Source: Leucoraja ocellata
Lineage: Eukaryota
Direction of reading: 5' to 3'
Length of the DNA: 55,488 nt
Assembly: GCA_036785375.1 (NCBI GenBank)
Contig: JAWMAR010004271.1
Coordinates: forward strand, 1-55,488
Shown piece by piece: positions 3,046 to 54,719 of the stretch; position 1 is the first letter of the stretch, and each line of letters opens with the position of its first letter. Both the position numbers and the translations under genes were made by a program. Under the pieces are notes generated by a model. It was not told where the DNA came from, did not search any database, and was given only the letters and a program-made list of their open reading frames with translations.

Positions 3046-3100
3046 ATGAACATGTCTTATTGGATCCGTGTGGTCGGTGCGTTGGTGTTTTGCGCAGTTT
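3046..3100 (+). CDS. IGL: Ig light chain cluster 1, leader exon (MNMSYWIRVVGALVFCAV; alternative ATG 3052)
   Basis: Hydrophobic signal peptide, phase-1 donor T|GTGAGT at 3101, TATA box about 70 nt upstream. Confidence 0.9.
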
Positions 3101-3219
3101 GTGAGTATTTTACTTTCCTGGACATTATACTTATTTCTGTTCACCATTAATTTGGGATTACCTCCCACACTTCAACAAACTTAATATTTTCTTTTTTTCT
3201 GATATTTCTCCTTTCTCAG

Positions 3220-3564
3220 ACTTAAGCGCGGCTGTTACAGTAACTCAGCCGCCTTCGATGTCCACCTCTACGGGACAGAACATACAAATACCCTGCACCA
3301 TATCGGGTACCAGTTCGGGCGCTAACTATGTCTCGTGGTACCAACAGATTCCTGGCAAAACTCCCAAGTTTCTATTCGTCCATACTTACAGCGGCAGCAT
3401 TTATAAAGGCACGGACATTCCAGACCGTTTTTCCATCTCGGTGTCAGGCAGCTCTGTAACATTCGCAATATCTAGCGTTCAATCGGTGGATGCTGCTGAC
3501 TATTACTGTGCCAAATGGGATAGTGGTTTACATTTCGGTAAAGGAACGAGGCTGGGTATTGGTG
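3220..3564 (+). CDS. IGL: Ig light chain cluster 1, germline-joined V-J exon (lambda/type II-like)
   Basis: Polypyrimidine+AG acceptor; VTVTQPPS..C..WYQQ..DYYC-AKWDSGLH-FGKGTRL in one frame, no RSS between V and J; donor G|GTAAGT at 3565. Confidence 0.95.
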
Positions 3565-4545
3565 GTAAGTAAAATATATTCTTCGAACAGCGCGCTGTTT
3601 TCTTTTTGTTTTAATGCAGATATTGCTTGATTTAATGTCCTGAGTTCACAGGATACGTGATTGGGCCAGTTGTATTTCAGTGCAGATGGTGCGATCTTGC
3701 TGTACAGATGTTCCGAGTTCACTTGGCCATAACTCAGTGAAATGACTGGGAAAGCGAGCTAATGCTTTGTCTTGAGCTTCGTTCAATAAATTGCGGAAAT
3801 ATTTGCAGTGATTGTCCAGATATGAAAGGAAATTGCTTGAGTAACGGGTTTCGCCAACGTCAATATTCAACACTGTCAAAAATCCGGTTGACGGGTTGAA
3901 CAAGGATATCAAAATGCCAAATGCGAAAGGAGAAAGTTTCGCACATTTCCTTCAGAAATTGTGTTTAATACGTAGAGCAGCTTTTCGTGGACGCAGCCGT
4001 GTATTTCAAATTTAAATGGACATTCGAACTACAATGTAATTCTTGCTTGTGAACTATATCTGCGAATCGGTGACCGTGGCCTTCCATATATTTTTGCCGA
4101 ACTTAAGTAGCGTCACCCTCCATCTCAATGGTGCCGACAATTAAATAAGTTTAAATCTGTTATTATAAATGTCGCGACCGCGAATCGTTTATATCTGCTG
4201 ATATATTTAAATAAATGTAAATCCGGAAATGTGCAGTAAAATGAACATTATAAAAGTTATAATAATGTATTCAGTTTTATAAAATACTGCAGCCATGATC
4301 TATCACAGATGGTTTCCCGGTGTTTATACAGAGGGTAGACGGGATCTATTTTAGTTGCTTTCACGCACTTTATTTATTGTTCACCCAATTAAAATAAACA
4401 CACTATAATGGTTTGAAATAGGTCGAGAATGAAACGGCATTTCTATAAATGAATAAATGAGTGCTTTAATGAGATGTATTTTCGGTAAATAATGATATCT
4501 CAACGACAGCATTTCTCCAATTAAATGTGACTTCTTATTAAACAG

Positions 4546-4868
4546 ATCCTCGGGCACCGATCGTGACGGTCCTGCCGCCTTCAGCCGATGAAGTTACTTC
4601 AAAGGGCACCGCCACCCTGGTGTGTTTGGTGAACGGCTTTAATCCGGGCTCGGTGGCTGTTGAATGGACAGTCGACGGCAGTGCAAGAAATAGCGACGTT
4701 GAGACCAGCCCGATCCAGCAGGATAAGGGCAACACGTTCAGTCTCAGCAGTTACCTGACTCTGACAGCCTCAGACTGGAACTTACACGACCTTTACTCCT
4801 GTGTGGTTACACACCAGGCTCAGGCAAACCCACTTAAGACAGATATCATGAGATCCAGCTGTATCTGA
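4546..4868 (+). CDS. IGL: Ig light chain cluster 1, constant exon
   Basis: Acceptor AACAG|; DPRAPIVTVLPPS..ATLVCLV..EW..SSYLTL..YSCVVTH..RSSCI*; C1-set motifs and penultimate Cys for the H-L disulfide. Confidence 0.95.
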
Positions 4869-5131
4869 TGTTGGAAACGTGAGGCTGACCTGACTAAGTT
4901 AGTTTATCATCATTGGGTTCGTCCATGTGACAAAGTTAGTAATGTATTGGACTTCAGTGTTTTCGTTCAGAAATGCCATTTGTAGTTGAAACTTCGATTT
5001 TTATGACGTTCACTTTAAATGTAGTTCTTTCGAAATAATGTCGTTCTTGAATGAAGCATCAAGTAGATTCAATTGCGTTATCCAACAGCATGGATGTTGT
5101 TATTGTACCCATGGTATCTTTGTAGCCGTTC

Positions 5132-5137
5132 AATAAA
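5132..5137 (+). terminator. Polyadenylation signal AATAAA of cluster 1 (paralogues 15828, 27892, 43611, 54987)
   Basis: AATAAA about 265 nt after the C stop, followed by G/T-rich sequence, present in all five copies. Confidence 0.7.
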
Positions 5138-5981
5138 GTTTAAAAAAACGCATTTCAAATGCATTGTTGATTCCCTCTGGTTTATTTCTGACCCGAACCA
5201 AAGAACCGTACAAACCAAGCAGGGCAAAGGTGGTCTTAAACCCCAAATTATCACAGAAATAAACAGAAAATACTGTTCATACTCAGTAAGTCGGGCGGTA
5301 TGTGGGAAGTGAGAAATAGATTAGACGTTTCAGGCTGTTTAAAAAAAATCAAAAACGTCCCTATCAGCCACGTGCGTTCAGGGTTTGTTAAATATGTCTT
5401 TGTTCACAAGGTGTACCGCTACATAATTAAATAAAATACGTGGCCATACGTGGAAATCTGGAAATTTGGAAACGCCATAAACTCCTTCATCACAGAAGGC
5501 CGTGACCTTCACACTAATCGGTGACGGGGTTTGTATTTAAATATTTACAAACATTACTCCTTATTTCTTCTTTATTTCTTCTGATTGTCAGCTTTAAAGA
5601 CACGGGGTGATTATTGGCGTTAGCGGAACTGCCACTGAGTTTGTATGTGGCGTGCACGTGTCTCACGGTGGTATTACACTAGAACTGGGCAACAACACTC
5701 TCAATAAAGCAAGATAATATCTACAGAAAGATGCGATGAGTGCACGGCAGCTTCATATAGACACCTGCAGAAAGAGAGAGGGGGGGGGGGGGGGGGGTGA
5801 GAATAGGACGGGGGCAGGGTTAATAGCGAACAATGAGGGAACTATATGCTATAGTTAGAGGACAACCAGTCACGGACAAACCCCTGACCTCTGTCACAAA
5901 TCGCCTTTCGCTTATTCCAAGCTTTATTCCCAATTATTTTCACGTTACATGAGCAACCTGTGCTTGAGTCTGAAAGAATGG

Positions 5982-6190
5982 GAAGGAGCTGCAGATGCTG
6001 GTTTAAAGCAAAGATAGACACAAAGATCTGGAGTAAATCAGCGGGTCAGAAAGCATCTCTGGAGAAAATGAATCGGTGACGTTTTGGGGCGAGACCCTTC
6101 TTCAGACTGTTTGAAGAAAGGTCTCGATCCGAAATGTCACCTATTCATTTTCTCCAGAGATGCTGGCTGACCCGCTAATTTACTCCAGCT
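5982..6190. mobile_element. Palindromic non-autonomous repeat, Penelope-like terminus (paralogues about 16944-17150, 28444-28650, 44720-44927; related copy 7864-8075)
   Basis: About 75-bp imperfect arms 6028-6104 / 6111-6188. Confidence 0.6.
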
Positions 6191-6191
6191 T

Positions 6192-6590
6192 TATAGAAAC
6201 ATAGAAACATAGAAACTTAGAAAATAGGTGCAGGAGTAGGCCATTCGGCCCTTCGAGCCTGCACCGCTATTCAATATGATCATGGCTGATCATCCAACTC
6301 AGTATCCTGCACCAGCCTTCTCTCCATACCCCGTGATCCCTTTAGCCACAAGGGCCACATCTAACTCCCTCTTACATATAGCCAATGAACTGGCCTCAAC
6401 TACCTTCTGTGGCAGAGAATTTCAGAGATTCCAGAGATGTGTGAAAACATGTTTTCCTCATCTCGGTCCCAAAAGATTTCCCCCCCTTTCCTTAAACTGT
6501 GACCCCCTGTCCTGGACCTCCCCAACGTCGGGAACAATCTTCCTGCATCTACCCTGTCCAACCCCCTAAGAATTTTGTAAGTTTCAGCCA
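6192..6590 (-). mobile_element. CR1 3' end on minus strand (paralogues about 17155-17480, 44930-45320)
   Basis: (ATAGAAAC)n tail; ETYKILRGLDRVDAGRLFP..RTGGHSL on minus strand. Confidence 0.8.
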
Positions 6591-7028
6591 TGATCTCATT
6601 ATGTGTCTTATCTTTTCTAAATGATCCGGTTTGTATGCATTTTGGCTGATTCGAATAAATGGTCACATATCTGCAATAGCTCATCTGATGGTTAGTTATT
6701 TTGGAAATTCCTCTAAATCTGTAAATACTGAGCCTACTTTCACTCGGAAAAAATGGTCAATTAAAACGCCTTGACTATGCCCCTCATTCAAATCACCATT
6801 ATACCTTCCCTGTTCAAAGGGACCAATTCCGGTTATTCTCGGGCTGCCATTATCATGCCCATTTTCTTCCCAATTTCTTCTGCGGCTTGTATTGAAGGAG
6901 CCAAAAACAAAGATTTGAGTCTTCCCGGCCTTGCCTTTTCCTTCCGTTCCCGTAGTGTCCTGGTTATCCATTGTGAGCTCCACCTTTCCCTGGTCATCGA
7001 TATCGGTTCTCATTTGTTCTGAATCTTT

Positions 7029-7243
7029 TCATAGAGACATAGAAACATAGAAAGTAGGTGCAGAAGGAGGCCATTCGGCCCTTCGAGCGAGCACCGCCAT
7101 TCAATGAGATCATGGCTGATCGTCCCCAATCAATAACCCGTGCCTGCCGTCTGCCCATATCCCTTGATTCCACTAGCCTCTAGAGCTCTAACTCTCTCTT
7201 AAATCCATCCAGTGATTTGGCCTCCACTGCCCTCTGTGGCAGG
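7029..7243 (-). mobile_element. Second CR1 3' end on minus strand (paralogues about 17840-18045, 28655-28860, 45760-45972)
   Basis: Same tail and 3' UTR. Confidence 0.8.
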
Positions 7244-8094
7244 TACTGACCCAAAAGGCCGCATTTTCTCCTGTCTCGTAATGTCATTACAATATTTTAC
7301 CGTTGCCTTTCGAAGATGTCTATGTGTGAGCGCCAGGACCGGCGAGAAAATCATGCACTTACGCTCATGCCATGTATAAATGCTGTCGGCCTCTCTCGCT
7401 CATCATCCGCGTGAATGCTGTTAAACACGATGTCAGTGTCATAACTTCAGATCTATCCACGATGGCCCACAATGTCTGTGCGAACCTAATGCCAATGTCA
7501 TCTGCCTGCCATATATAATGTTTATATCCCTCCATTCCCTATCTGTTCACGTGTTTGCCTAAATGCCTCTTGAACCTTGCTGGGTATCTACTTACACCGC
7601 TTCTTCTAGCAAAGCGTTGCACACTTTCTGTTTAAAAAAGACATGCAAAGTGTGCCCCCTTCAAACGCCCCCTCGCCTACTTTAATAAACTATATTATAT
7701 AATACTTCGGCCCTGGACTCCTAAGTAAAGCGACTTATCTTCACTAAGGGTATTAGAGCAATAGATAGGGATAGGAAATCGATGCAGTTTCTGGCCAACA
7801 ACACATTAATCCCCAAAATAAATCAATGGATAGGGATTCAATAAACCGACAGTGTTAGTTAACGTGTAGGAAGGAACTGCAGATGCTGGTTTAAATCGCA
7901 GATCGATACAAAATGCTCGAGTAACGCAGCGGGACAGGAAACGTCTCTAGATAGAAGAAATGGGTGACGTTTCGGGTCTGAAACAGGGTCTCGACCGGAA
8001 AGGTCACAAATTCCTTCTGTCCAGAGATGTTGCCTGTCCCGCTGAGTCAGTCCAGCATGTTGTATCAAATGTTGGTTAAGGTCTGTTTCGTTTT

Positions 8095-8375
8095 GGAGAA
8101 CTCGGAAAATTGCTGAAAATGCTGAAACCTCCAAGGTGGTTATCTTCGGTTTGCTTCCAGTTCCTCATGCTGGCGAGTGCAGGAACAGGGAGATACGGGA
8201 CCTGAATGTATGGCTGAGGAACTGGTGCAGGGGCAGGGATTTAGATTCCTAGACCACTGAGATGTGTTTTGGAGTAAGGGGGAACTGTACAAAAGGGACG
8301 GATTGCACTTTAACAGACGGGGGACCAGCATTCTGGCAGGCAGGCTTGCCACTGCTGAACAGGTGGTTTTAAATT
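8095..8375 (+). mobile_element. CR1 ORF1 SGNH-esterase C-terminal fragment
   Basis: Translates, with lesions, as KVVI.GLLPVPHA..RNREIRDLNVWLRNWC..GFRFLDH..LYKRDGLHFNRRGTSILAGR. Confidence 0.75.
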
Positions 8376-8378
8376 AAA

Positions 8379-9400
8379 CTAGACGAAATGCAGACCCGTT
8401 GGGGGGGGGGGGGGGGGGGGGGTGGAGAAGGAATTTATTTAAAATTTGTACATAAACACGACGAAATTTAATCAGGAGTGGATACTTGGAATGAAAAATG
8501 AAATCTCTACCGAAATGGAAACATTCTGGGCATTTGTGGGTCTGGTGTTGGCGTAGCAACGAATCAAGGCTGACAGCCACAGGCTGGGAACCACGAGTCA
8601 GGCAGAAACACAGCCAGCCAGCAGCCAGCCACATAGTTTTAATATTATGCTAGACCAAGTGCAGACCCGTTGGGTCTGTTTCCCCAACGCGCGTTTGCGG
8701 GGGAAGAGGGGGGGGGCTGGGGCATCACACTCACACTAACCACTAACCAGGGGTAGGGGGTAGAGAGGGGGGAAAGTGTGGAGGGAGTGGGAGAGCGGAG
8801 AGAGGGGGAAGAGTGGGAGGGAAAGAGAAGGGAGGGGGAGAGAGGGGTGGGGGAGGGAGATGGGGAGGAGTGGGGGATGGGGGGTGGGGGGAGATAAGTG
8901 TAAGACTGCGGAGGGAGGGGAGGAGGGAGATGGGGTAGGGGAGGGAGGGGGAGAGTATGGAGTGAGGGGGAGAGGGGTGGGGGGAGAGAGGGGAAATAGT
9001 GGGGAGGGAGAGTGGAAGGGGGAGGGGTAGGGAAGTCCATCTGTTCCCCATTCCCTATCACCCCCAACCCTCTGTCTCTATTCCCACACACGTGATGACG
9101 CGCTTCGACACAAGCTGCGGGGGTGGGGGGAGGGGCTGGGGCTGGGGCTGCTGCAAAGGCATATGTAAATTGATCCATTCCGATTGGACATCTGTGAGCA
9201 TTGGGAATTGTGACATCACACGATGGAAAGTTCAACAACATTCTATGGGTGAGAGCTGTTTTTTTTAATTGTCGGGGCGGGGGGGGGGGGGGGGGGAGAA
9301 GGATTTTATTACAAATGTGTTCATAAACACGACGAAATTTATGGAGTGGATACTTGGAATGAAAAGTGAATTTTCTACCGAAATGGAAAAAATCTGGGCG
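8379..9400 (-). mobile_element. Tandem non-autonomous Helitron-like units with G-rich core (units end at CTAG 8379 and 8650)
   Basis: Minus-strand 3' end: hairpin CAGACCC-AAC-GGGTCTG, 8 nt, CTAG; repeated 5' module. Confidence 0.65.
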
Positions 9401-10563
9401 CACTGGTGATCATTTTAAAATGTTCAATAGATTGAGGATCAGTTCCTGTGGATTGGAGGATTGCTAATGTTATCCCACTTTTCAAGAAAGGAGTGAGAGA
9501 GAAAACTGGGAATTACAGACCAGTTAGCCTGACGTCGGTGGTGGGAAAGATGCTGGAGGCAATTATTAAATATGTAATAATGGGGCATTTGGATAGCAGT
9601 AAAAGGATTAGTCCAAGTCAACATGGATTTCTGAAAGGGAAATCATCCTTGACTAATCTTCTGGAATTTTTTGAGGATATGACAAGTAAAATGGATTAAG
9701 GGGAGCCAGTGGATTTAGTATATCTAGCCATTCAGAAAGCCTTTGATAATGACACAAAGCTGGGTGGCAGTGTGAACTGTGAAGAGGATGTTAGGTGGTT
9801 GCAGGGTGACCTGGACAGGTTGAGTGAGTGGGCAAATGCGTGGCAGATGCAGTATAATATAGATAAATGTGAGGTTATCCACTTTGGCGGCAACAACAAG
9901 GGAGAAGATTATTATCTGAAGGGGTTAGGTTAGGTAAAGGGGAGGTGCAGCGAGACCTGGGCGTCTTTGTACACCAGTCACTGAAAGTTGGCGTGCAGGT
10001 ACAGCAGGCAGTGAAGAAAGCTAATGTTGGCCTTCATAACAAGAGGATTTCAGTATAGGAGTAAAGAGGTTCTTCTGCAGTTGTATAGGGCTCTGGTAAG
10101 ACCACATCTGGAGTATTGCGTACAGTTTTGGTCTCCTAATCTGAGGAAGGACATCCTTGTGATTGAAGCAATGCAGCGTAGGTTCACGAGATTGATCCCT
10201 GGGATGGCGGGACTGTCCTATGAGGAAAGATTGAAAATACTAGGCTTGTATTCGCTGGAGTTTAGAAGGATGAGGGGGTATCTTATAGAAACATATAAAA
10301 TTATAAACAGGACTGTACAAGCTAGATGCAGGAAAAATGTTCCCAATGCCGGGCCAGTCCAGAACCAGGGGCCACAGTCTTGGAGGCCATTTAGGAGTTA
10401 GATAGAGCTCTAGAGGCTAGTGGAATCAAGGGATATGGGGAGAAGGCTGGCACGTGTTATTGATTGGGCACGATCAGCTAAGATCGCAATGAATGGCGGT
10501 GCTGGCTCGAAGGGCCGAATGGCCTCCTTCTGCACCTAGTTTCTATGTTTCTATGTTTCTATG
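9400..10563 (+). mobile_element. Internally deleted CR1 ORF2 and 3' tail (paralogue 48557-49716)
   Basis: [43 protein letters not shown], (TTTCTATG)3 tail. Confidence 0.9.
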
Positions 10564-10971
10564 AAAAGATTCAGAACAAATGAGACCCGAAATCGACGAT
10601 CAGGGAAAGGTGGAGCTCACAATGAACAACCAGGACACTAGGGAATCTGGAGAAAAAGGCATGGCCGGGAAGACTCAAATGTCTGCTGTTGGCTCCGTCA
10701 GAAAAATTACAAGCCGCAGAAGAAATTGAGAAGAAATTGGGCATGATCATGGCAGCTCGAGAGTAACGGAATTGGTTCCTTTGAACAGGGAAGGTATAAT
10801 GGCGATTTGAATGAGGGACATAGTCCGCTCACCCAACCTATAGAGTATTGAATTCAGTCTAGAGGTGTATAGGGTCGTGAGAGGAATAGATCGGGTGGAT
10901 GTATAGTCCCTTGCCCAGAGGAGGACCGGGTTCATGGTGACGGGCAAAGATTTAATAGGAATCTGAGGGGT

Positions 10972-11623
10972 TCCTATTCAATGTGTGCAAGACACGCTTT
11001 GATACAAGTCAAGGTGGTTCACATAGCTCATATGTCAAAAGATAAGTTATCTCGTTTTTATGGTCATATGAATCCTACCTGTGACAGATGTAAATCTGAA
11101 GTGGCCTCACTGACCCATATGTTTTGGTCTTGCCCTTCTTTGGAAAAATATTGGAAATAATTTTTTGTTACTATTTCTGTAGTCTTAGGCATAGGTTTAC
11201 AAACTGGAATTACTGCAATTTTTGGGCTGCCAATGTTAGATCCTAATCATTTGTCCCGCTCCGCCCATGGGTTGATTGCTTTTACCACATGAATCGCCAG
11301 AAGATCTATTTTATTCAAATGGAAAGACTCCCAACCCTCCGACCACACTCCAGTGGTATTCGGAAACGATATAATGTTTAAATTTTGAAAAAATCAGCAG
11401 TGACACTGTTGAACCCTTGGTTAAATTTGATAAGACTTGGGTAAAATGTATTGAAAATTTTCATACAACATAAATTGCTCCCTCTTTAACCGTTATAAAA
11501 AATATTTTATCTCTATTGGGTGGAACAGACATGACGACAAACAGACTTACATTGTTGAAATTCTCAGTTCAGATTCGGGTTTGCTTTGCTTTGTTTTTTT
11601 AAACTATTTTATTTTTATGCGTA

Positions 11624-11716
<93 letters not shown>

Positions 11717-12029
11717 CAATTTTTCTCTTTTTTTTCTTTCTTTATTTTAGGGGGGGCTTTTTTTGTCTATTTCTTTTTGTGCTTTTTTTACATTTATAAG
11801 TTTCCTTTTAAAGATTTAACTATATTAACATAGAGACCTGGAGGTCTATATGCATTGTGTATTTTGACATTGGTCTCATATCAGGTTATATCTGTTATTA
11901 ATGTAATCCTGATACCTATGTATCAATACCATTGTTATGTTTATCATTATTCTTTTTGTTCTGTTTTTTATGTTTTATTTTTGCTTTTTTTGGAAAAAAA
12001 ACAATAAAAAGATTTGTTTTTAAATAGAA
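10972..12029 (+). mobile_element. 5'-truncated L1/Tx1-clade LINE with target-site duplication (paralogue 50124-51181)
   Basis: CDRCKSEVASLTHMFWSC zinc knuckle from frame at 10981; T-rich 3' UTR, AATAAA 12003; TSD AGGAAT(C/A)TGAGGGGT 10957-10971 / 12030-12044. Confidence 0.8.
11626..11716. repeat. (TTA)n microsatellite, about 30 units (paralogue about 50777-50866)
   Basis: Direct reading. Confidence 0.97.
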
Positions 12030-13709
12030 AGGAATATGAGGGGTAACGTTTTCCCACAGAGGGTGGTGGGAGTATGGAACAAGCAGCCAGAGGAGATAGT
12101 TGTGCCAGGGACTATCACAACGTTTAAAAACCAGTTAGACAGGTAAATGGATATGACGGATTTGGAGGGATATGGACCCAATACGGGCAGGTGGGACGAG
12201 TGTAGATGGGTCGGTGGTCGATGTGTGAAAGTTGGGCCGAAGGGCCTGTTTCCACACTCTATGACTGACTCTCATTGACTCTATGGGGCATCATGTAGCA
12301 TCTGCGGATCGGCATTTGCGGTGGTAATAATGAACAGCCACGAGCCAGTGCAATCTTTCGCGTGTTCACGTTGCAAAGTTTCTCCCTTGTCAGTTTTGCC
12401 CGTGCCCGTGCTGGAGTGCCCGTGTTCCATTCAACTTTAATTGAATATGGATGTGCTGTATATAGATTTCCTGTCGCCCTGTCGTACTTCAAAGCCGAAA
12501 GAACTCTGGAAGTAGGCGGTGAGAGCCAATATGACCCCTTTTACTTCACTCATTCATTAAGACACCCCTTTTACTTCACTGATCAACAGTCCCCGCACAT
12601 TAACATTATCCTACACACTTTAGGGACAATATATAATTTTACCAAGCCAATGAACCTACTGTCTTTGTAGTGTGGGAGGAAACCGGAGCTACTTGGGAAA
12701 TCCCAGGCAGGTCATGGGGAAAACGTAGTGGTGAAAGGATGAACGGTTAAGTTAATGGATCGCTGACCAGTCATGTTCACCGATAAACTAATCTAGTTTC
12801 ATGACAATTTAAGGACAATTATTAATTGTAATTATTTTTCTCACCCGCTATTTCCCGAAAACCGCTCTTCGCGTTTCTCCCTTGTCAGTTTTGCCAGATA
12901 GCTGGAGTGCCCGTGTTCTATACAACTTTAATTGAATATGGATGTGCTGTGTGTAGAATTCCTGTCGTCCTGTCGAACTACAAAGTCGAAAGAACTCTGG
13001 AAGTGGTCGGTGAGAGCCAATATCACCCCTTTTACTTCACTCATATGTGCATTAATTTGGTAAGGCGACCTTTACACTTTGAGTCGTGAATTACTGCGCA
13101 TTACAACAGGATAGTATCACATACCACTTTTACAAGCACGACTCACGTCGGGTAGTCAAAATAGCCCCCAAAAACGGCTACTTTACTGACATTTGTAGTG
13201 ATGTTCTGTCCCCTCAGGTCTTTTCTAAATGATCTGATACACAAGTAGAGGGGCAGCCTGTGGGGTTTATCATTTCTAAAATGACAAAGATATCTAAATA
13301 TAGATTTAATGTGCTTTTTAATAAAACAATGCTGATGCTGTGACTGTGATCATGTTATGTTCAGCGATACGGAGGTAGACAAAAATGCTGGAGAAACTCA
13401 GCGGGTGAGGGAGCGAAGGAAATCAGCGATACGCATTCAGTTGGTCCGTTTAGATAAAATATTTCTATTCCGTTTTCATTGTTGATTAAACAGTTACCGA
13501 ATATAATATTTAAAACTCGCAATCTGTTTAGTGTATATCTGCGGAGTGTTCATACCGAACATTATAGACTGTTTGTTTATAAAGAAGGGACAACTGTGAC
13601 AATCCTTTTCATTCTGCTGGATGTATGAAGCTTTTTAGAAATACAAGTCTCTAAAATAAGACCTGCGTGTTTCACAGGGGCGAATATTTTGAGGAAGAAT
13701 CTGGCAATT

Positions 13710-13791
13710 CTGATTGGCTTCGAGGAGCATACCGGTTTGATTGGTTTGGATAATTAAACACACGGTGACATATCGTCATTCCATTTATAAA
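13710..13791 (+). promoter_or_regulatory. Cluster 2 promoter (CCAAT x2, half-CRE, TATA)
   Basis: Paralogous to 2894-2975. Confidence 0.6.
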
Positions 13792-13861
13792 GAGAGCCAG
13801 AGAGCAAGATTACACGCCACTTGTCCTGGAAACTGCCGCCCCATCGGAGCTCAGTCGGTTA

Positions 13862-13916
13862 ATGAACATGTCTTATTGGATCCGTGTGGTCGGTGCGTTG
13901 GTGTTTTGCGCAGTTT
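13862..13916 (+). CDS. IGL: Ig light chain cluster 2, leader exon
   Basis: Identical peptide to cluster 1 leader; GTGAGT donor at 13917. Confidence 0.9.
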
Positions 13917-14037
13917 GTGAGTATTTTACTTCCCTGGACATTATACTTATTTCTGTTCACCATTAATTTGGGATTATCTCCCACACTTAAACAAACTTAA
14001 TATTTTCTCTTTTTTCCTGATATTTCTCCTTTCTCAG

Positions 14038-14379
14038 ACATAAGCGCGGCTGTTACAGTAACTCAGCCGCCGTCGATGTCCACCTCTACGGGACAGAACA
14101 TACAAATACCCTGCACCATATCGGGTTCCAGTACAGGCACTTACTATGTCTCATGGTACCAACAAATTCCTGGCAAAACTCCCAAGTATCTATTCTACTA
14201 TTATACCGGCACCATTTATAAAGGCACGGACATTCCAGACCGTTATTCCATCTCGGTGTCAGGCAGCTCTGTAACATTCGCAATATCTAGCGTTCAATCG
14301 GTGGATGCTGCTGACTATTACTGTGCCAAATGGGATAGTGGGTTACATTTCGGTAAAGGAACGAGGCTGGGTATTGGCG
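14038..14379 (+). CDS. IGL: Ig light chain cluster 2, germline-joined V-J exon
   Basis: Open V-J frame, CDR1 SSTGTYY, CDR2 region YYYTGTI, CDR3 AKWDSGLH, intact splice sites. Confidence 0.95.
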
Positions 14380-19813: not shown

Positions 19814-19844
19814 TAGATAGATATAGATATAGAATATAGATATA

Positions 19845-43022: not shown

Positions 43023-43345
43023 ATCCTCGGGCACCGATCGTGACGGTCCTGCCGCCTTCAGCCGATGAAGTTACCTCAAAGGGCACCGCCACCCTGATGT
43101 GTTTGGTGAACGGCTTTAATCCGGGCTCGGTCGCCGTTGAGTGGACAGTCGACGACAGTGCAAGAAATAGCGACGTTGAGACCAGCCCGATCCAGCAGGA
43201 TAAGGACAACACGTTCAGTCTCAGCAGTTACCTGACTCTGACAGCCTCAGACTGGAATTTACACGACCTTTACTCCTGTGTGGTTACACACCAGGCTCAG
43301 GCAAACCCACTTAAGACAACTATCGAGAGATCCAGCTGTATCTGA
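43023..43345 (+). CDS. IGL: Ig light chain cluster 4, constant exon
   Basis: Open C1-set frame ending IERSSCI*. Confidence 0.95.
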
Positions 43346-46300
43346 TGTTGGAAACGTGAGGCTGACCTGACTAAGTTAGTTTATCATCATTGGGTTCGGC
43401 CATGTGACAAAGTTAGTAATGTATTGGACTTGAGTGTTTTCGTTCAGAAATGCCATTTGTAGTTGAAACGTCGATTTTAATGACTTGTTCACTTTAAATT
43501 TAGTTCTTTCGAAAGAATGTCGTTCTTGAATGAAGCATCAAGTAGATTCAATTGCGTTATCCAACAGCATGGATGTTGTTATTGTACCCATGGTATCTTT
43601 GTAGCCGTTCAATAAAGTTTAAAAAACGCATTTCAAATGCATTGTTGATTCCCTTTGGTTTATTTCTGACCCGAACCATGATGGCTTAACACGGGTTGTG
43701 TTGTCTCGTAGATTTGAGCTAGCAACACTGATTTTGATTCTCTATTTCGATCACTAATTGCAATCGTACAACAGTCGTGGGCCACTCGTCCATTTATACC
43801 ACGCGTTCTACAGCGCTTTGTCAGTTCTTGTGCAACATGATTCAGCCAAAGAACCGTATAAACCAAGCAGGGCAAACGTGGTCTTAAACCCCAAAATATC
43901 ACAGAAATAAACAGAAAATACAGTTCATACTGATATTAGTCGGGCGGTATGTGAGAAGTGAGAAATAGATTAGACGTTTCAGGCTGTTTAAAAAAAATCA
44001 AAAACGTCCCTACCAGCCTCGTGCGTTCAGGGTTTGTTAAATATGTCTTTGTTCACAAGGTGTACCGCTACATAATTAAATAAAATACGTGTCCATACGT
44101 GGAAATCTGGAAATTTGGAAACGCCATTAATTCCCAACATATCAGCAGGTTTCTGTAAACTGATGGGTTGTTCGCACCTCCCCTTTACACCCCTCGCACT
44201 AAGCATGGCACCTCCATCCTTCATCACAGAAGGCCGTGACTTTCACACTAATCGGTGACGGGGTTTGTATTTAAATATTTACAAACATTAAACTTTATTT
44301 CTTCTTTAGTTCTTCTGATTGTCAGCTTTAAAGACACGGAGTGATTATTGGCGTTAGCAGAACAAGTCACTGAGTTTGTATGTGGCGTGCACGTGTCTCA
44401 CAGTGGTATTACACTAGAACTGGGCAACAACACGCTCAATAAAGCAAGATAATATCTACAGAAAGATGCGATGAGTGCACGGCAGCTTCATATAGACACG
44501 TACAGAAAGAGAGAGAGAGAGAGGGGAGGGGGGAGAGAGAACGGGGCGGGGGGCGGGGTAATAACGAACAATGAGGGGACTATATGCTATAGTTAGAGGA
44601 CAATCAGTCACGGACAAACCCCTGACCTCTGTCACAAATCGCTTTTCACTTATTCCAAGCCTTATTCCCAATTATTTTCACGTTACATGAGCAACCTGGG
44701 CTTAAGTCTTAATGAATGGGAAGGAGTTGCAGATGCCGGTTTAAAGCAAAGATAGACACAAAAATCTGGAGTAACTCAGCGGGTCAGAAAGAATCTCTGG
44801 AGAAAAGGAATCGGCGACGTTTTGGGGCGAGACCCTTCTTCAGACTGTTTGAAGAAAGGTCTCGATCCGAAATGTCACCTATTCATTTTCTCCAGAGATG
44901 CTGTTTGACCCGCTAATTTACTCCAGCGTTATAGAAACATAGAAACATGGAAAATAGGTCCAGCAGTAGGCCATTCGGCCCTTCGAGCCTACACCGCTAT
45001 TCAATATGATCATGGCTGATCATCCAACTCAGTATCCTGTACCTGCCTTCTCTCCGCACCCTCTGATCCCTTTAGCCACAAGGGCCACATCTAACTCCCT
45101 CTTACATATAGCCAATGAACTGGCCTCAACTACCTTATGTGGCAGAGAGTTCCAGAGATTCCGGAGATGTGTGAAAACATGTTTTCCTCATCTCTGTCCC
45201 AAAAGATTTCCCCCCTTTCCTTAAACTGTGACCCGCTGTCCTGGACCTCCCCAACGTCGGGAACAATCTTCCTGCATCTAGCCTGTCCAACCCCCTAAGA
45301 ATTTTGTAAGTTTCAGCCATGATCTCATTATGTGTCTTATCTTTTCTAAATGATCCGGATTGTATGCATTGTTGGTTGATTCGAATAAATGGTACATATC
45401 TGCAATTGCTCACCTGCTGGTTAGTTATTTTGGAAATTCCTCTAAATCTGTAAATACTGAGCGTACTTTCACTCGGAAAAAATGGTCAATTAAAACGCCT
45501 TGACTATGCCCCTCATTCAAATCACCATTATACCCTCCCTGTTCAAAGGGACCAATTCCGGTTATTCTCAGGCTGCCATTATCATGCCCATTTTCTTCCC
45601 AATTTCTTCTGCGGCTTGTAATGAAGGAGCCAAAAACAAAGATTTGAGTCTTCCCGGCCTTGCCTTTTCCTTCCGTTCCCGTAGTGTCCTGGTTATCCAT
45701 TGTGAGCTCCACCTTTCCCTGGTCATCGATATCGGGTCTCATTTGTTCTGAATCTTTTCATAGAGACATAGAAACATAGAAAATAGGTGCAGAAGGAGGC
45801 CATTCGGCCCTTCGAGCCAGCACCGCCATTCAATAAGGTCATGGCTGATCGTCCCCAATCAATAACCCGTGCCTGCCTTCTGCCCATATCCCTTGATTCC
45901 ACTAGCCTCTAGAGCTCTAACTCTCTCTTAAATCCATCCAGTGATTTGGCCTCCACTGCCCTCTGTGGCAGGTACTGACCCAAAAGGCCGCATTTTCTCC
46001 TGTCTCGTAATGTCATTACAATATTTTACCGTTGCCTTTCGAAGATGGCTATGTGTGAGCGCCAGGGCCGGCGAGAAAATCAAGCACATACACTCATGCC
46101 ATGTATAAATGCTGTCGGCCTCTCTCGCTCATCATGCGCGTGAATGCTGTTAAACACGATGTCAGTGTCATAACTTCAGATCTATCCACGATGGCCCACA
46201 ATGTCTGTGCGAACCTAATGCCAATGTCATCTGCCTGCCATATACAATGTCTACAACCCTCCATTCACTATCTGTTCACGTGTTTGCCTAAATGTCTCTT

Positions 46301-46694
46301 GAACCTTGCTGGGTATCTACTTACACCGCTTCTTCTAGCAAAGCGTTGCACACTTTCTGTTGAAAAAAGACATGTAAAGTGTGCCCCCTTCAAACGTCCC
46401 CTCGCCTACTTTAATAAACTATGTTATATAATACTTCGGCCCTGGACTCCTAAGTAAAGCGACTTATCTTCACTATGGGTATTAGAGCAATAGATCGTGA
46501 TGGGAAATCGATGCAGTGTCTGGCCAACAACACATTAATCCCCAAAATAAATCAATGGATAGGGATTAATTTAGCCAAAGAACCATAAACCGACAGTGTT
46601 AGTTAACGTGTAGGAAGGAACTGCAGATGCTGGTTTAAATCGAAGATCGATACAAAATGCTCGAGTAACGCAGCGGGACAAGAAACAGGAAGTG

Positions 46695-48552
46695 TTTTAT
46701 TTAAAATTTGTACATAAACACGACGAAATTTAATCAGGAGTGGATACTTGGAATGAAAAATGAAATCTCTACCGAAACGAAAACATTCTGGTCATTTGTG
46801 GGTCTGTTGTTGGCGTAGCAACGAATCAAGGCTGGCAGCCACAGGCTGGGAACCACAAGGCAGGCAGAAACACAGCCAGCCACATAGTTTTAATATTATA
46901 CTAGACCAAGTGCAGACCCGTTGGGTCTGTTTCCCCAACGCGCGTTTGCGGGGGAAGAGGGGGGGGGGGGGGGGGGGGCTGGGGCATCACACTCACACTA
47001 CTCACCCCCCAAACACACAGGTGGGGGGAGGGGGAGACGGGGTGGGGAGAGGGGGTGGTGAGAAGAGGGGAGGGAGGGGAGGGAGGGGAGTGAGCGGAGG
47101 GAGGGGAGGGAGGGAGGGAGGGGAGAGGGGGAGGAGGAAACGGGAGAGATTTGGGAGGAAGAGCAGAGCGGGGTAGGGGGAGAGAGAGGGGGATGGGAAG
47201 GGGAGGAGAGTGGGGAGTGGGAGGAGAGCGGGGAGGTCAGGAAGGGGGGAGGGGTGGGAGAGGGGTAGCGGGGATTGGTGCAAGAGAGAGGGGGTGGGGG
47301 GGAGATGGGGGTGAAGAGAAGTGAGGAGGAGGTGGGAGGGGAGGAGGGAGAGGGTGAGGAGAGAGGGGGGAAGGGGAGGAGGAGAGTAGGGTGGGGGAGG
47401 GGATGAGAGACGGGTGGGGGAGGGGGAGAGAGGGGTGGGGGAAGGGGAGAGAGGAGGAGGAGGGAGGAGGAGAGGAGGGAGAGGAAGGAGGAGGGAGAGG
47501 GGAAGAGTGTGGAGGGAGGGGAGAGTGGTAGGGGGGCTGTATTGTTTTCTCTGCGTTGTATTGTTAATTCGTAACTGGCTTGTCGCTTACGTCTCTTATC
47601 CTCTCTCTCACCACTCTCACGTCACCCCCCCCCCACTTCGTTCTCCCCGGTGGAAGAGGCAGAGGTGGGTGGGGGAGAGGTGGGGGGAGAGAGGGGTGGG
47701 GTTGGCGTTGGAGGGGAGGAGGTAGAGCGGTGACGAGAGAGGGAGAGGGGAAAGGAGGAGGAGAGTGGTGTGGGAGGGGTGAGAGATGGTGGGGGGGGAG
47801 AGGGGGAATATGGTGGGGAGGCGGAGAGAGGAGAGATAGGGGAGAGGATGCAGGGGAGGGAGGAGGGAGAGGTGGAAGAGTGTGGAGGGAGGAGGAGAGG
47901 GGTAGGGGTAGAGAGGGTGGAAGTGTGGAGGGAGAGGAGAACGGAGAGAGGGGGAAGAGTGGGGAAGGAGAGAGAAGGGAGGGGGGAGAGAGAGGGGGTG
48001 GGGGAGGGAGATGGGGAGGAGGAGTGGGGGATGGGGGGTGGGGGTGAGATAATGTGTAAGGACTGGGGAGGGAGGGGAGGAGGGAAAATGGGGTAGGGAG
48101 GGAGGGGGAGAGTATGGAGTGAGTGGGAGAGGGGTGGGGGGGAGAGAGTGGAAATAGTGGGGAGGAGGTGGAAGGGGGAGGGGGAGGGAAGTCCATCTGT
48201 TCCCCATTCCTATCACCCCCAATCTCTGTCTCTGTTCCCACACACGTGATGACCGCTTCGACACAGGCTGCGGGGGTGGGGGGAGGGGCTGGGGCTGCTG
48301 CAAGGCATATGTAAATTGATCCATTCCGATTGGACATCTGTGAGCATTGGGCATTGTGACATCACACAATGTGACATCACACATAGTTCAACAACATTCT
48401 ATGGGTGGGAGCTGTTTTTTTAATTGTCGGGGCGGGGGTGGGGGGGGGGGGGAAGGATTTTATTAAAAATGTGTTCATAAACACGACGAAATTTATGGAG
48501 TGGATACTTGGAATGAAAAGTGAAATCTCTACCGAAATGGAAAAATTCTAGG
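46695..48552 (-). mobile_element. Tandem Helitron-like units with expanded G-rich core (CTAG at 46901)
   Basis: Same 3' hairpin/CTAG; 5' end deleted as at 9400. Confidence 0.6.
46950..48190. repeat. G/A-rich low-complexity tract (shorter paralogues 8700-9035, 19035-19370, 29905-30240)
   Basis: Near-continuous G runs with A/T spacers. Confidence 0.9.
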
Positions 48553-50773
48553 CGCAACGGTGATCATTTTCCAATGTTCAATAGATTGAGGATCTGTTCC
48601 TGTGGATTGGAGGATAGCTAATGTTTTCCCACTTTTCAAGAAAGGAGTGAGAGAGAAAACGGGGTATTACAGACCAGTTAGCCTGACTTCGGTGGTGGGA
48701 AAGATGCTGGTGTCAATTATTAAATATGTAATAATGGGGCATTTGGATAGCAGTAAAAGGATTAGTCCAAGTCAACATGGATTTATGAAAGGGAAATCAT
48801 GCTTGACTATCTTCTGGATTTTTTTGAGGATATGACAAGTAAAATGGATCAAGGGGATCCAGTGGATTTAGTATATCTAGACATTCAGAAAGCCTTTGTT
48901 AATGACACAAAGCTGGGTGGCAGTGTGAACTGTGAAGAGGATGTTAGGTGGTTGCAGGGTGACCTGGACAGGTTGAGTGAGTGGGCTGATGCATGGCAGA
49001 TGCAGTATAATATAGATAAATGTGAGGTTATCCACTTTGGCGGCAACAACAAGGGAGAAGATTATTATCTGAAGGGGTTAGGTTAGGTAAAGGGGAGGTG
49101 CAGCGAGACCTGGGCGTCTTTGTACACCAGTCACTGAAAGTTGGCGTGCAGGTACAGCAGGCAGTGAAGAAAGCTAATGTTGGCCTTCATAACAAGAGGA
49201 TTTCAGTATAGGAGTAAAGAGGTTCTTCTGCAGTTTGTATAGGGCTCTGGTAAGACCACATCTGGAGTATTGCGTACAGTTTTGGTCTCCTAATCTGAGG
49301 AAGGACATCCTTGTGATTGAAGCAATGCAGCGTAGGTTCACGAGATTGATCCCTGGGATGGCGGGACTGTCCTATGAGGAAAGATTGAAAATACTAGGCT
49401 TGTATTCGCTGGAGTTTAGAAGGATGAGGGGGTATCTTATAGAAACATATAAAATTATAAACAGGACTGCACAAGCTAGATGCAGGAAAAATGTTCCCAA
49501 TGCTGGGCCAGTCCAGAACCAGGGGCCACAGTCTTGGAGGCCATTTAGGAGTTAGATAGAGCTCTAGAGGCTAGTGGAATCAAGGGATATGGGGAGAAGG
49601 CTGGCACGTGTTATTGATTGGGCACGATCAGCTAAGATCGCAATGAATGGCGGTGCTGGCTCGAAGGCCGAATGGCCTCCTTCTGCACCTAGTTTCTATG
49701 TTTCTATGTTTCTATGAAAAGATTCAGAACAAATGAGACCCGAAATCGACGATCAGGGAAAGGTGGAGCTCACATGAACAACCAGGACACTAGGGAATCT
49801 GGAGAAAAAGGCATGGCCGGGAAGACTCAAATGTCTGCTGTTGGCTCCGTCAGAAAAATTACAAGCCGCAGAAGAAATTGAGAAGAAATTGGGCATGATC
49901 ATGGCAGCTCGAGAGTAACGGAATTGGTTCCTTTGAACAGGGAAGGTATAATGGCGATTTGAATGAGGGACATAGTCCGCTCACCCAACCTATAGAGTAT
50001 TGAATTCAGTCTAGAGGTGTATAGGGTCGTGAGAGGAATAGATCGGGTGGATGTATAGTCCCTTGCCCAGAGGAGGACCGGGTTCATGGTGACGGGCAAA
50101 GATTTAATAGGAATCTGAGGGGTTCCTATTCAATGTGTGCAAGACACGCTTTGATACAAGTCAAGGTGGTTCACATAGCTCATATGTCAAAAGATAAGTT
50201 ATCTCGTTTTTATGGTCATATGAATCCTACCTGTGACAGATGTAAATCTGAAGTGGCCTCACTGACCCATATGTTTTGGTCTTGCCCTTCTTTGGAAAAA
50301 TATTGGAAATAATTTTTGTTACTATTTCTGTAGTCTTAGGCATAGGTTTACAAACTGGAATTACTGCAATTTTGGGCTGCCAATGTTAGATCCTAATCAT
50401 TTGTCCCGCTCCGCCCATGGGTTGATTGCTTTTACCACATGAATCGCCAGAAGATCTATTTTATTCAAATGGAAAGACTCCCAACCCTCCGACCACACTC
50501 CAGTGGTATTCGGAAACGATATAATGTTTAAATTTTGAAAAAATCAGCAGTGACACTGTTGAACCCTTGGTTAAATTTGATAAGACTTGGGTAAAATGTA
50601 TTGAAAATTTTCATACAACATAAATTGCTCCCTCTTTAACCGTTATAAAAAATATTTTATCTCTATTGGGTGGAACAGACATGACGACAAACAGACTTAC
50701 ATTGTTGAAATTCTCAGTTCAGATTCGGGTTTGCTTTGCTTTGTTTTTTTAAACTATTTTATTTTTATGCGTA

Positions 50774-50866
<93 letters not shown>

Positions 50867-52865
50867 CAATTTTTCTCTTTTTTTTCTTTCTTTATTTTAG
50901 GGGGGGGCTTTTTTTTTGTCTATTTCTTTTTGTGCTTTTTTTACATTTATAAGTTTCCTTTTAAAGATTTAACTATATTAACATAGAGACCTGGAGGTCT
51001 ATATGCATTGTGTATTTTGACATTGGTCTCATATCAGGTTATATCTGTTATTAATGTAATCCTGATACCTATGTATCAATACCATTGTTATGTTTATCAT
51101 TATTCTTTTTGTTCTGTTTTTTATGTTTTATTTTTGCTTTTTTTGGAAAAAAACAATAAAAAGATTTGTTTTTAAATAGAAAGGAATATGAGGGTAACTT
51201 TTTCCCACAGAGGGTGGTGGGAGTATGGAACAAGCAGCCAGAGAGATAGTTGTGCCAGGGACTATCACAACGTTTAAAAACCAGTTAGACAGGTAAATGG
51301 ATATGACGGATTTGGAGGGATATGGAACCCAATACGGGCAGGTGGGACGAGTGTAGATGGGTCGGTGGTCGATGTGTGAAAGTTGGGCGAAGGGCCTGTT
51401 TCCACACTCTATGACTGACTCTCATTGACTCTATGGGGCATCATGTAGCATCTGCGGATCGGCATTTGCGGTGGTAATAATGAACAGCCACGAGCCAGTG
51501 CAATCTTTCGCGTGTTCACGTTGCAAAGTTTCTCCCTTGTCAGTTTTGCCCGTGCCCGTGCTGGAGTGCCCGTGTTCCATTCAACTTTAATTGAATATGG
51601 ATGTGCTGTATATAGATTTCCTGTCGCCCTGTCGTACTTCAAAGCCAAAAGAACTCTGGAAGTAGGCGGTGAGAGCCAATATGACCCCTTTACTTCACTC
51701 ATTCATTAAGACACCCCTTTTACTTCACTGATCAACAGTCCCCGCACATTAACATTATCCTACACACTTTAGGGACAATATATAATTTTACCAAGCCAAT
51801 GAACCTAGCAACCTGTCTTTGTAGTGTGGGAGGAAACCGGAGCTACCTGGGAAATCCCAGGCAGGTCATGGGGAAAACGTAGTGGTGAAAGGATGAACGG
51901 TTAAGTTAATGGATCGCTGACCAGTCATGTTCACCGATAAACTAATCTAGTTTCATGACAATTTAAGGACAATTATTAATTGTAATTATTTTTCTCACCC
52001 GCTATTTCCCGAAAACCGCTCTTCGCGTTTCTCCCTTGTCAGTTTTGCCAGATAGCTGGAGTGCCCGTGTTCTATACAACTTTAATTGAATATGGATGTG
52101 CTGTGTGTAGAATTCCTGTCGTCCTGTCGAACTACAAAGTCGAAAGAACTCTGGAAGTGGTCGGTGAGAGCCCAATATGACCCCTTTTACTTCAACTCAT
52201 ATGTGCATTGATTTGGTACAGGCGACTTTACACTTTGAGTCCTGAATTACTGCACATTACAACAGGATAGTATCACATACCACTTTTACAAGCACGACTC
52301 ACGTCGGGTAGTCAAAATAGCCCCCAAAACGGCTACTTTACTGACATTTGTAGTGATGTTCTGTCCCCTCAGGTCTTTTCTAAATGATCTGATACACAAG
52401 TAGAGGGGCAGCCTGTGGGGTTTATCATTTCTAAAATGACAAAGATATCTAAATATAGATTTAATGTGCTTTTAAATAAAACAATGCTGATGCTGTGACT
52501 GTGATCATGTTATGTTCAGCGATACGGAGGTAGACAAAAATGCTGGAGAAACTCAGCGGGTGAGGGAGCGAAGGAAATCAGCGATACGCATTCAGTTGGT
52601 CCGTTTAGATAAATATTTCTATTCCGTTTTCATTGTTGATTAAACAGTTACCGAATATAATATTTAAAACTCGCAATCTGTTTAGTGTATATCTGCGGAG
52701 TGTTCATACCGAACATTATAGATTGTTTGTTTATAAAGAAGGGACAACTGTGACAATCCTTTTCATTCTGCTGGATGTAATGAAGCTTTTTAGAAACACA
52801 AGTCTCTAAAATAAGACCTGCGTGTTTCACATGGGCGAATATTTTGAGGAAGAATCTGGCAATTT

Positions 52866-52947
52866 CTGATTGGCTTCGAGGAGCATACCGGTTTGATTGG
52901 TTTGGATAATTAAACACACGGTGACATATCGTCATTCCATTTATAAA
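52866..52947 (+). promoter_or_regulatory. Cluster 5 promoter (CCAAT x2, half-CRE, TATA)
   Basis: Paralogous to 2894-2975. Confidence 0.6.
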
Positions 52948-53017
52948 GAGAGCCAGAGAGCAAGATTACACGCCACTTGTCCTGGAAACTGCCGCCCCAT
53001 CGGAGCTCAGTCGGTTA

Positions 53018-54719
53018 ATGAACATGTCTTATTGGATCCGTGTGGTCGGTGCGTTGGTGTTTTGCGCAGTTTGTGAGTATTTTACTTCCCTGGACATTAT
53101 ACTTATTTCTGTTCACCATTAATTTGGGATTATCTCCCACACTTAAACAAACTTAACAATTTCCTTTTTTTCTGATATTTCTCCTTTCTCAGACATAAGC
53201 GCGGGCTGTTACAGTAACTCAGCCGCCGTCGATGTCCACCTCTACGGGACAGAACATTCAAATACCCTGCACCATATCGGGTTCCAGTACAGGCGCTAAC
53301 GATGTCTCGTGGTACCAACAGATTCCTGGCAAAAACTCCCAAGTATCTATTCTACTATTATACCGGCACCATTATAAAGGCACGGACATTCCAGACCGTT
53401 ATTCCATCTCGGTGTCAGGCAGCTCTGTAACATTCGCAATATCTAGCGTTCAATCGGTGGATGCTGCTGACTATTACTGTGCCAAATGGGATAGTGGTTT
53501 ACATTTCGGTAAAGGAACGCGGCTGGGTATTGGCGGTAAGTAAAATATATTCATCGGACAGCGCGCTGTTTTCTTTTTATTTTAATGCAGATATTGTTTG
53601 ATTTAATGTCCTGAGTTCACATGGTACGTGATTGGGCCAGTTGTATTTCAGTGCAGACGGTGCGATCTTGCTGTACAGATGTTCCGAGTTCACTTGGACA
53701 TAACTCAGTGAAATGACTGGGAAAGCGAGCTAATGCTTTGTCTTGAGCTTCGTTCAATAAATTGTGGATTCTGCAGTGATTGTCCAGATATGAAAGGAAA
53801 TTGCTTGGGTAACGGGGTTCACCAACGTCATATTCAACACTGTCAAAAATCCGGTTGACGGGTTTAAACAAGGATATCAAAATGCCAAATGCGAAAGGAG
53901 AAAGTTTCGCACATTTCCTTCAGAAATTGTGTTTAATACGTAGGGCAGCTTTTCGTGGACGCAGCCGTGTATTTCAAATTTAAATGAACATTCGAACTAT
54001 AATGTTATTCTTGCTTGTGAACTATATCTGCGAATCGGTGACCGTGGCCTTCGAAGACTAGTTTCCTTTTTTTTTGCCGAGTGTAGTAAAATGAACATTA
54101 TAAAAGTTAAAGTAATGTATTCAGTTTATAAAATACTGCAGCCATGATGTATCACAGATGGTTTACCGGTGTTTATACAGAGGGTAGACAGGATCTATTT
54201 TAGTTGCTTTCACGCACTTTATTTATTGTTCACCCCAATTAAAATAAACACACTGTAATGGTTTGAAAAAGGTCGAGAATAAAACGACATTTCTATAAAT
54301 GAATAAATGAGTGCTTTAATGAGATGTATTTTCGGTAAATAATGATATCTGAACGACAAGCATTTCTCCAATTAAATGTGACTTCTTATTAAACAGATCC
54401 TCGGGCACCGATCGTGACGGTCCTGCCGCCTTCAGCCGATGAAGTTACCTCAAAGGGCACCGCCACCCTGGTGTGTTTGGTGAACGGCTTTATCCGGGCT
54501 CGGTGGCCGTTGAGTGGACAGTCGACGGCAGTGGCAAGAAATAGCGACGTTGAGACCAGCCCGATCCAGCAGGATAAGGACAACACGTTCAGTCTCAGCA
54601 GTTACCTGACTCTGACAGCCTCAGACTGGAACTTACACGACCTTTACTCCTGTGTGGTTAAACACCCGGCTCAGGCAAACCCACTTAAGACAAATATCGA
54701 GAGATCCAGCTGTATCTGA
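53018..54719 (+). pseudogene. IGL: Ig light chain cluster 5 (leader 53018-53072, V-J 53193-53535, C 54397-54719), frameshifted as assembled
   Basis: +1 G at about 53203 puts V out of frame with the leader (stop in CDR1 region); further +1/-1 pair around FR2/CDR2 and -1/+1 pair in C. Indels lie mostly in short homopolymers so may be sequencing error. Confidence 0.6.

Follow-up and report, generated by a model that had tools for sequence, protein, structure and literature searches.

Layout of the Array

The 55,488-nucleotide stretch of Leucoraja ocellata DNA analyzed here (GenBank assembly GCA_036785375.1, contig JAWMAR010004271.1, positions 1 to 55,488 of the forward strand; hereafter the window) harbors an array of at least four secure germline-joined skate immunoglobulin (Ig) lambda light-chain genes together with one doubtful further copy. 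The five units, termed U1 to U5, all lie on the plus strand and are composed of a leader (L), fused variable and joining segments (VJ) and a constant region (C), as listed in Table 1. An earlier interpretation made from the letters alone, referred to below as the sequence-only reading, had already described this arrangement, and its start-to-start distances of 10816, 11928, 15720 and 11508 bp were reproduced exactly. The third interval is enlarged by a DIRS1-like retrotransposon insertion that adds 4828 bp net, and amounts to 10892 bp without it.

Each unit consists of a 55-bp leader exon, an intron with GT/AG borders, a single VJ exon of 342-345 bp, a second intron of 860-995 bp and a C exon of 323 bp, followed by a poly(A) signal. 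The shorter type of J-C intron, with 860 bp, is common to U2 and U5. Pfam detects V-set and C1-set domains above cut-off in the units, and the four open units show all features expected of an Ig light chain, namely a leader, one V-set and one C1-set domain, the FGXG motif of J, the terminal Cys and canonical splice sites. The earlier count of five light-chain genes thus stands for U1-U4, but not for U5, which is interrupted by five coding 1-bp indels. The suggestion that the array continues past the window is plausible, as bases 1-3045 are 95.9 % identical to the spacer before U3 and the right end falls within the shared 3' flank; both ends are consistent with it, although this is no proof, for terminal units would look alike. 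An Rfam search of the window gave no matches.

Table 1. Features of the window. Positions count from its first base; each unit begins at its ATG.
Feature	Position	Strand	Details
U1	3046..4868	+	leader 3046-3100, VJ 3220-3564, C 4546-4868; 240 amino acids, intact; poly(A) signal 5132
U2	13862..15562	+	leader 13862-13916, VJ 14038-14379, C 15240-15562; 239 amino acids, intact
U3	25790..27626	+	leader 25790-25844, VJ 25965-26309, C 27304-27626; 240 amino acids, intact
U4	41510..43345	+	leader 41510-41564, VJ 41686-42027, C 43023-43345; 239 amino acids, intact
U5	53018..54719	+	leader 53018-53072, VJ 53193-53535, C 54397-54719; frameshifted as written
U1 promoter	2897..2975	+	two inverted CCAAT boxes (-149, -122), TATAAA (-76 from ATG); motifs by consensus
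Spacer U1-U2, type B	4869..13861		retroelement fragments, zf-RVT match 10873-11157; purine-rich tract ~8.7-9.1 kb; (TAT)n 11622-11716
Spacer U2-U3	15563..25789		3' part type A, common to 28668-35297 and window bases 1-3045
Spacer U3-U4, type A	27627..35297		long interspersed nuclear element (LINE)-type reverse transcriptase fragments, RVT_1 at 31529-32149
Spacer U4-U5, type B	43346..53017		left part 4.0 % diverged from U1-U2 spacer; right part, past the purine tract, 0.36 % but indel-rich
DIRS1-like retrotransposon	35295..40125	+	left terminus 35295-35358; internal complementary region 39787-39899; right terminus 40016-40125
DIRS1 domains			reverse transcriptase (RT) 36467-37591; RNaseH-like and Dam (weak) 37542-38651; tyrosine recombinase 38441-39622

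Germline Joining of V and J

The fusion of V and J without recombination signal sequences (RSS), as claimed by the sequence-only reading, was borne out in all five units, none of which contains an RSS-like site between its ATG and 190 bp past J. Across the whole window, 12 loose RSS-like sites were counted vs 6.5 ± 3.0 in 60 shuffles, several of the 12 being copies of one site. The same VJ junction recurs in all 19 relatives from other assemblies, which speaks against a somatic join, and a somatically rearranged origin was rejected on this ground. As read from the sequence, the units therefore encode a light chain without any rearrangement, with no RAG required.

Isotype and Relatives

The closest named proteins come from other skates. 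The C domains find their best matches among RefSeq light chains from Leucoraja (93 %) and Amblyraja (91 %), and the full-length products of U1-U4 share 95.0-97.1 % identity with their nearest Leucoraja erinacea RefSeq protein, none being identical. The same subfamily, annotated as 'lambda-1 light chain-like' and 77-97 % identical to the products of the window, comprises five proteins in L. erinacea (XP_055511137, 139-142) and 13 in Amblyraja radiata (e.g. XP_032899424-433), with the same third complementarity-determining region (CDR3) and the same length polymorphism in CDR2. As each of the two sets sits on one long contig, the expansion is not peculiar to the present assembly.

Beyond the skates, the C domains are 64-70 % identical to three sandbar-shark chains named lambda by their depositors. 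In a C-domain tree, which was built by a quick method from 63 selected rows and few columns and rooted at the midpoint, the units fall into a skate clade (SH-aLRT 99), which belongs to a batoid clade (99) and with it to a 54-row clade (100) that includes the sandbar lambdas. This nesting among labelled lambda chains upholds the earlier call of chondrichthyan lambda, or type II. The units resemble the lambda type II/NS3 clusters of sandbar shark, nurse shark (NS3) and little skate in being L-VJ-C mini-loci with fused VJ, no RSS and C domains 62-70 % identical. They differ from the sandbar chains and from AAA59379, which we take to be the published skate lambda record L25566 (the link was not found in 12 of the 15 supplement files), in that their V domains belong to a family with long CDR2 and reach just 44-52 % identity to the V domains of these chains. 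The C domain of Pristis XP_051887747, used in the identity comparison only and absent from the tree, is 66-69 % identical; this protein is labelled IgLL, read here as lambda, in PMC12227049 (papers are cited by PMC number).

Delimited by hand in IMGT style, CDR1 of U1-U4 comprises 8 and CDR2 6-7 residues, inside the range of 3-9 and 3-7 residues given for lambda (PMC5985310). These lengths exclude kappa, sigma and lambda-2, and sigma-2 only in part. Two points weigh against the lambda assignment here: the combination of 8 and 7 residues in U1 and U3 is also compatible with sigma-2, and the tree contains no kappa, sigma or sigma-2 chain, so that the isotype is judged by the position of the units among lambda-labelled sequences. 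Sigma-2 (type I) is the other skate isotype whose genes are all joined and numerous (PMC2192082; PMC5192425). We nevertheless regard it as very improbable, as the C domains are nested among labelled lambdas at the identities given above and CDR2, reported to be invariantly 7 residues long in sigma-2, has 6 in U2, in U4 and in 13 of the 23 family proteins, whereas sigma-2 would demand 8 and 7 in all members. Among the matches listed by our protein searches (in one of them the best 120 of 1158), no labelled kappa, sigma, sigma-2 or lambda-2 reference was present; searches of solved structures returned mostly multi-domain mammalian antibodies and were of no help for the isotype. Taken together, we are confident that the units are Ig lambda (type II) germline-joined mini-loci of one skate subfamily that evolved by tandem duplication.

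A separate group of light chains (P0061, P0063, P0064 and P0109-P0119 of our set) was seen alongside. It shares about 45-51 % C identity with the genes of the window, forms its own clade (SH-aLRT 100) and is located on the same contigs as lambda genes in several sharks and rays.

Growth of the Array and Status of U5

The spacers align with each other over kilobases at 94-97 % identity and fall into two types, giving the array order A-U1-B-U2-A-U3-A(+DIRS)-U4-B-U5 with a period of about 11 kb. These alignments indicate that gene and spacer were copied together, in line with the tandem duplication envisaged earlier, and strongly suggest that the array was enlarged by copying entire ~11-kb segments of gene plus spacer.

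Exchange of tracts between the copies, by gene conversion or unequal crossover, is probable from the distribution of the 46 informative sites, 27 of which unite U2 with U5, 8 U1 with U4, 5 U3 with U4, 4 U1 with U3 and 2 U4 with U5. Eleven of them are incompatible with the best tree vs 1.2-3.0 expected from simulated homoplasy under no or moderate rate variation, a value of 11 being reached in 0 of 1000 simulations. Against a mosaic origin speaks that the signal becomes weaker under extreme rate variation (p=0.022 at gamma 0.2; p=0.10 at gamma 0.1). Degenerate G/A-rich tracts, strongly skewed in GC, also occur in every spacer (8.4-9.4, 18.7-19.8, 29.6-30.7 and 46.7-48.4 kb); these tracts are candidate G-quadruplexes and candidate recombination breakpoints.

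The frameshifts of U5 stem from three one-base indels in VJ and two in C. The unit is nearest to U2, with 1.2 % substitutions, and holds 14 private 1-bp indels, all of them in homopolymers, vs 0-1 in each of the other units. The same signature extends over the block from 48.9 to 55.5 kb, where the 6547 bases aligned with the U2 block contain 43 substitutions, next to 38 one-base indels of which homopolymers account for 36. The ratio of indels to substitutions is 0.6-1.5 in this block vs 0.05-0.06 in all four other inter-copy comparisons (about 20 substitutions per 1-bp indel), and the rise in homopolymer indels is abrupt, directly after the purine-rich tract at ~47.0-48.2 kb. This 6.6-kb block thus resembles an unpolished long-read consensus, and the indels of U5 are probably consensus errors, so that they do not establish U5 as a pseudogene or as a separate locus. 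We consider U5 to be real sequence, as its CDR1 ends in 'AND', a variant also present in Leucoraja XP_055511141 and Amblyraja XP_032899432.

Part of the array could still be an assembly artefact, with U5 and the 4 kb upstream of it representing a second allele of U2, or else low-coverage sequence wrongly joined at the purine-rich tract around 47-48 kb, and a true local count of four. The spacer on the U5 side differs from its U2 counterpart by only 0.36 % substitutions over 3640 bases, divergence falls from 4.0 % to this value across the low-complexity tract, and both the homopolymer indels and the majority of informative sites uniting U2 with U5 fit as well. However, a recent unequal crossover would yield the same pattern, some substitutions of U5 such as the 'AND' variant look real, and U5 has two informative sites in common with its neighbor U4. 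We therefore take an artefact as a serious possibility, somewhat short of an even chance, and place the identity of U5 as an allele of U2, rather than a very recent duplicate, at a similarly tentative level. Either way U1-U4 are left standing, as they differ pairwise by 2.7-3.6 % and three of them follow a type A spacer, which exceeds what two alleles allow; a collapse of the whole array to alleles is thereby ruled out for these four. A (TAT)32 microsatellite, reported at equal length in the two type B spacers (11622-11716 and 50772-50866), fits either a very recent common origin or allelism.

Diversity of the Binding Loops

The intact units differ foremost in their CDRs, each having a CDR2 of its own (HTYSGSI in U1, YYTGTI in U2, next to the CDR1 GSSTGTYY, HGTGGSI in U3 and YESGSI in U4). 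Among U1-U4, 9 of 15 residues in CDR1 and CDR2 are variable vs 8 of 88 in the frameworks (Fisher p=3e-5). The proportions of nonsynonymous (pN) and synonymous (pS) differences are 0.221 and 0.072 in CDR1 and CDR2, a pN/pS of about 3, compared with 0.026 and 0.029 in the frameworks and 0.025 and 0.076 in C. The weight of this ratio as a sign of CDR-focused change is lessened by the few synonymous sites and the non-independent pairs among four genes, which make it a rough value. Raw densities of AID motifs are 14-16 per 100 nucleotides in CDR1 and CDR2 vs 5.6-10.8 in the frameworks.

The 23 family proteins, from three skate genera, display 16 distinct CDR2 and 12 CDR1 sequences, next to 6 of CDR3, which is 8 residues long in all 23 and reads AKWDSGLH or a near variant throughout. 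This strongly indicates that a single old VJ join was copied many times, with diversity shifted to CDR1 and CDR2. U3 alone among the 23 carries Gly in place of the conserved Trp (AKGDSGLH), an exchange that may alter pairing with the heavy chain. In a wider, pattern-based and redundant set, CDR3 has 8-9 residues in 60 of 61 sequences of the long-CDR2 V family and 5 to 12 in the short-CDR2 family (81 sequences); the narrow lengths of the former may reflect few ancient joining events.

Promoters and CpG Content

The CCAAT/CCAAT/TATA arrangement recurs at identical offsets in all five promoters, among which nucleotide diversity is 0.023. No Ig octamer was detected within one mismatch in the region from -700 to -1 of any of the five units. 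Sandbar-shark lambda promoters reportedly are of the CCAAT/TATA type as well, which a literature search did not bear out. The joined kappa genes of nurse shark retain the octamer (PMC2193156). Octamer-like words with one mismatch are located downstream of the ATG only, for instance near the start of the J-C intron in each of the five units.

The NF-kB-like site at about -1170 that all units carry goes back to a single inherited site, and such sites are about as frequent as expected by chance (10 vs 8.4). Counts of EBF, PU.1, E-box and CTCF motifs in the window are at or below chance, and we take none of these motifs as a sign of function. For CTCF, a weak test with a consensus motif and one mismatch allowed gave 0 sites in the window vs 2.8 expected, and hence none at the promoters.

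The ratio of observed to expected CpG is 0.91-1.02 in the gene bodies vs 0.47-0.55 in the spacers, which suggests low germline methylation of the genes. CpG transitions between the copies amount to 5 of 254 in genes vs 14 of 320 in spacers (p=0.16), a non-significant difference that gives low methylation no clear support, with no clear CpG excess in the spacers either. Along the window, ratios around 1 recur periodically at ~2.0-5.3, 13.0-16.0, 25.0-28.0, 40.5-44.0 and 52.5-55.0 kb, CpG-island-like at a GC content of just 36-55 %.

Gene Choice in B Cells

Each unit, equipped with its own promoter elements, splice sites and poly(A) signal, is predicted to give rise to a signal peptide followed by a V-set and a C1-set domain, the latter with Cys as its next-to-last residue. 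Through this residue the chains would pair with IgM or IgW heavy chains, and, going by what is known of the family, AID hypermutation would diversify them further. We propose that a B cell would switch on one or a few units in a probabilistic and leaky manner, and that pairing with the rearranged heavy chain would then select which light chain reaches the surface. We favor such leaky activation with a pairing filter over both co-expression and strict singular choice, and give it about an even chance. A study of light-chain exclusion in nurse shark reportedly found lambda mRNA in kappa-positive cells. The proposal is weakened in two respects, as its leaky-activation step leans on this reported finding, and expression of the units in B cells and their pairing are predicted from family knowledge. 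Besides that study, our ranking is based on the limiting-factor and pairing model described in PMC2435157 and on the co-transcription of several light chains in B cells of trout (PMC8188548).

The sequence-only reading had put forward stochastic promoter choice, with co-expression as the alternative; in the strict, singular form of such a choice, one unit per B cell would be opened epigenetically in the style of olfactory receptors or protocadherins. The near-identical promoters and the missing rearrangement step that could break the symmetry between them make this attractive, and Eason and co-workers (cited in PMC2435157) had put forward olfactory-receptor-like activation of one gene at a time as a hypothesis for skate Ig. 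The authors of PMC2435157, however, consider it unlikely that the two systems are mechanistically linked, B cells of trout co-transcribe several light chains (PMC8188548), the window lacks CTCF-like sites, and CpG-undepleted gene bodies would be easier to reconcile with units that are open by default than with silent ones. Strict singular choice thus appears unlikely. A fuller version appears less likely still: a RAG-free singular-choice locus of octamer-less, CpG-island-like units 11 kb apart, one of them on per B cell, in which gene conversion between neighbors, in the germline and perhaps via AID in B cells, would shuffle CDR1 and CDR2 around a fixed CDR3. If true, the unit-specific CDR2 tags would make singular choice directly measurable.

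Frank co-expression, where several units are used together, would be tolerated if the near-fixed CDR3 leaves most specificity to the heavy chain and the light chain acts as a semi-invariant partner. The uniformity of CDR3 across all 23 family proteins and the octamer-less promoters are in line with this reading, but the excess of replacement change in CDR1 and CDR2 suggests that individual specificities matter, and nurse shark heavy chains are reported to show clonal expression of IgM (PMC2435157). It ranks above strict singular choice and is still rather doubtful compared with leaky activation filtered by pairing.

Relation to Known Systems

Neither the joined repertoire nor the puzzle of one gene per cell is novel, as both are already in print (PMC4279169, PMC5192425, PMC2192082, PMC2435157). 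Every chondrichthyan lambda gene studied is joined (PMC4279169, PMC5192425), and a lambda gene cluster lies on one scaffold in Callorhinchus (PMC10751288). In 1995, skate was reported to contain 89 or more joined type I clusters whose replacement changes concentrate in the CDRs (PMC2192082). These Raja erinacea sigma-2 clusters resemble the array in forming a RAG-independent multigene repertoire with CDR-focused replacements, but represent a different isotype and were counted by library screening and PCR, in an abstract that states no spacing (PMC2192082). In nurse shark, lambda is limited to six loci (PMC5192425), while the copies of the window follow each other at ~11 kb. The heavy-chain mini-loci of sharks show the same cluster organization and pose the same problem of exclusion; they rearrange, however, and are separated by 120 to >200 kb (PMC5192425, PMC2435157), so that the spacing in the window is about ten times tighter. 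A Vertebrate Genomes Project (VGP) preprint surveys fish light-chain loci without separating the types and tabulates the loci in its supplements (PMC13320880).

The array is therefore a known gene type posing a known puzzle and not a new system, the subfamily being annotated by RefSeq in two skates already. From the window, the physical arrangement of a joined-lambda array can be read; it also adds the ~11-kb period, two spacer types, probable mosaicism, diversity focused on CDR1 and CDR2, promoters without octamer, gene bodies not depleted of CpG and a young DIRS1 element. A description of joined-lambda units spaced at ~11 kb was not found in our literature searches, outside of which most subscription papers lie. 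As the CDR2 of each intact unit is unique, single-cell sequencing could count the units used per B cell, which bears on the long-open question of light-chain exclusion where no rearrangement enforces one.

DIRS1-like Insertion Upstream of U4

The retrotransposon that enlarges the third interval ends 1385 bp upstream of the ATG of U4. Both of its ends read ATT; before U1 and U3, the empty sites carry only one ATT. RT and tyrosine recombinase score above the Pfam cut-off, whereas the RNaseH-like (E=0.012) and Dam (E=0.02) matches remain below it. With its ATT termini, inverted terminal repeats, overlapping internal complementary regions, open reading frames (ORFs) for RT, a putative methyltransferase-like protein and tyrosine recombinase, and a length of 4.8 kb, the element resembles the DIRS1 family (PMC3266345); unlike in that family, the gag and pol regions of the present copy are each spread over two frames, by real change or by consensus error. 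Its tyrosine recombinase ORF is open. Complementarity between the internal regions and the termini is perfect over 37 and 79 bases, and judging by its sequence the insertion is young; it may be polymorphic and could affect U4.

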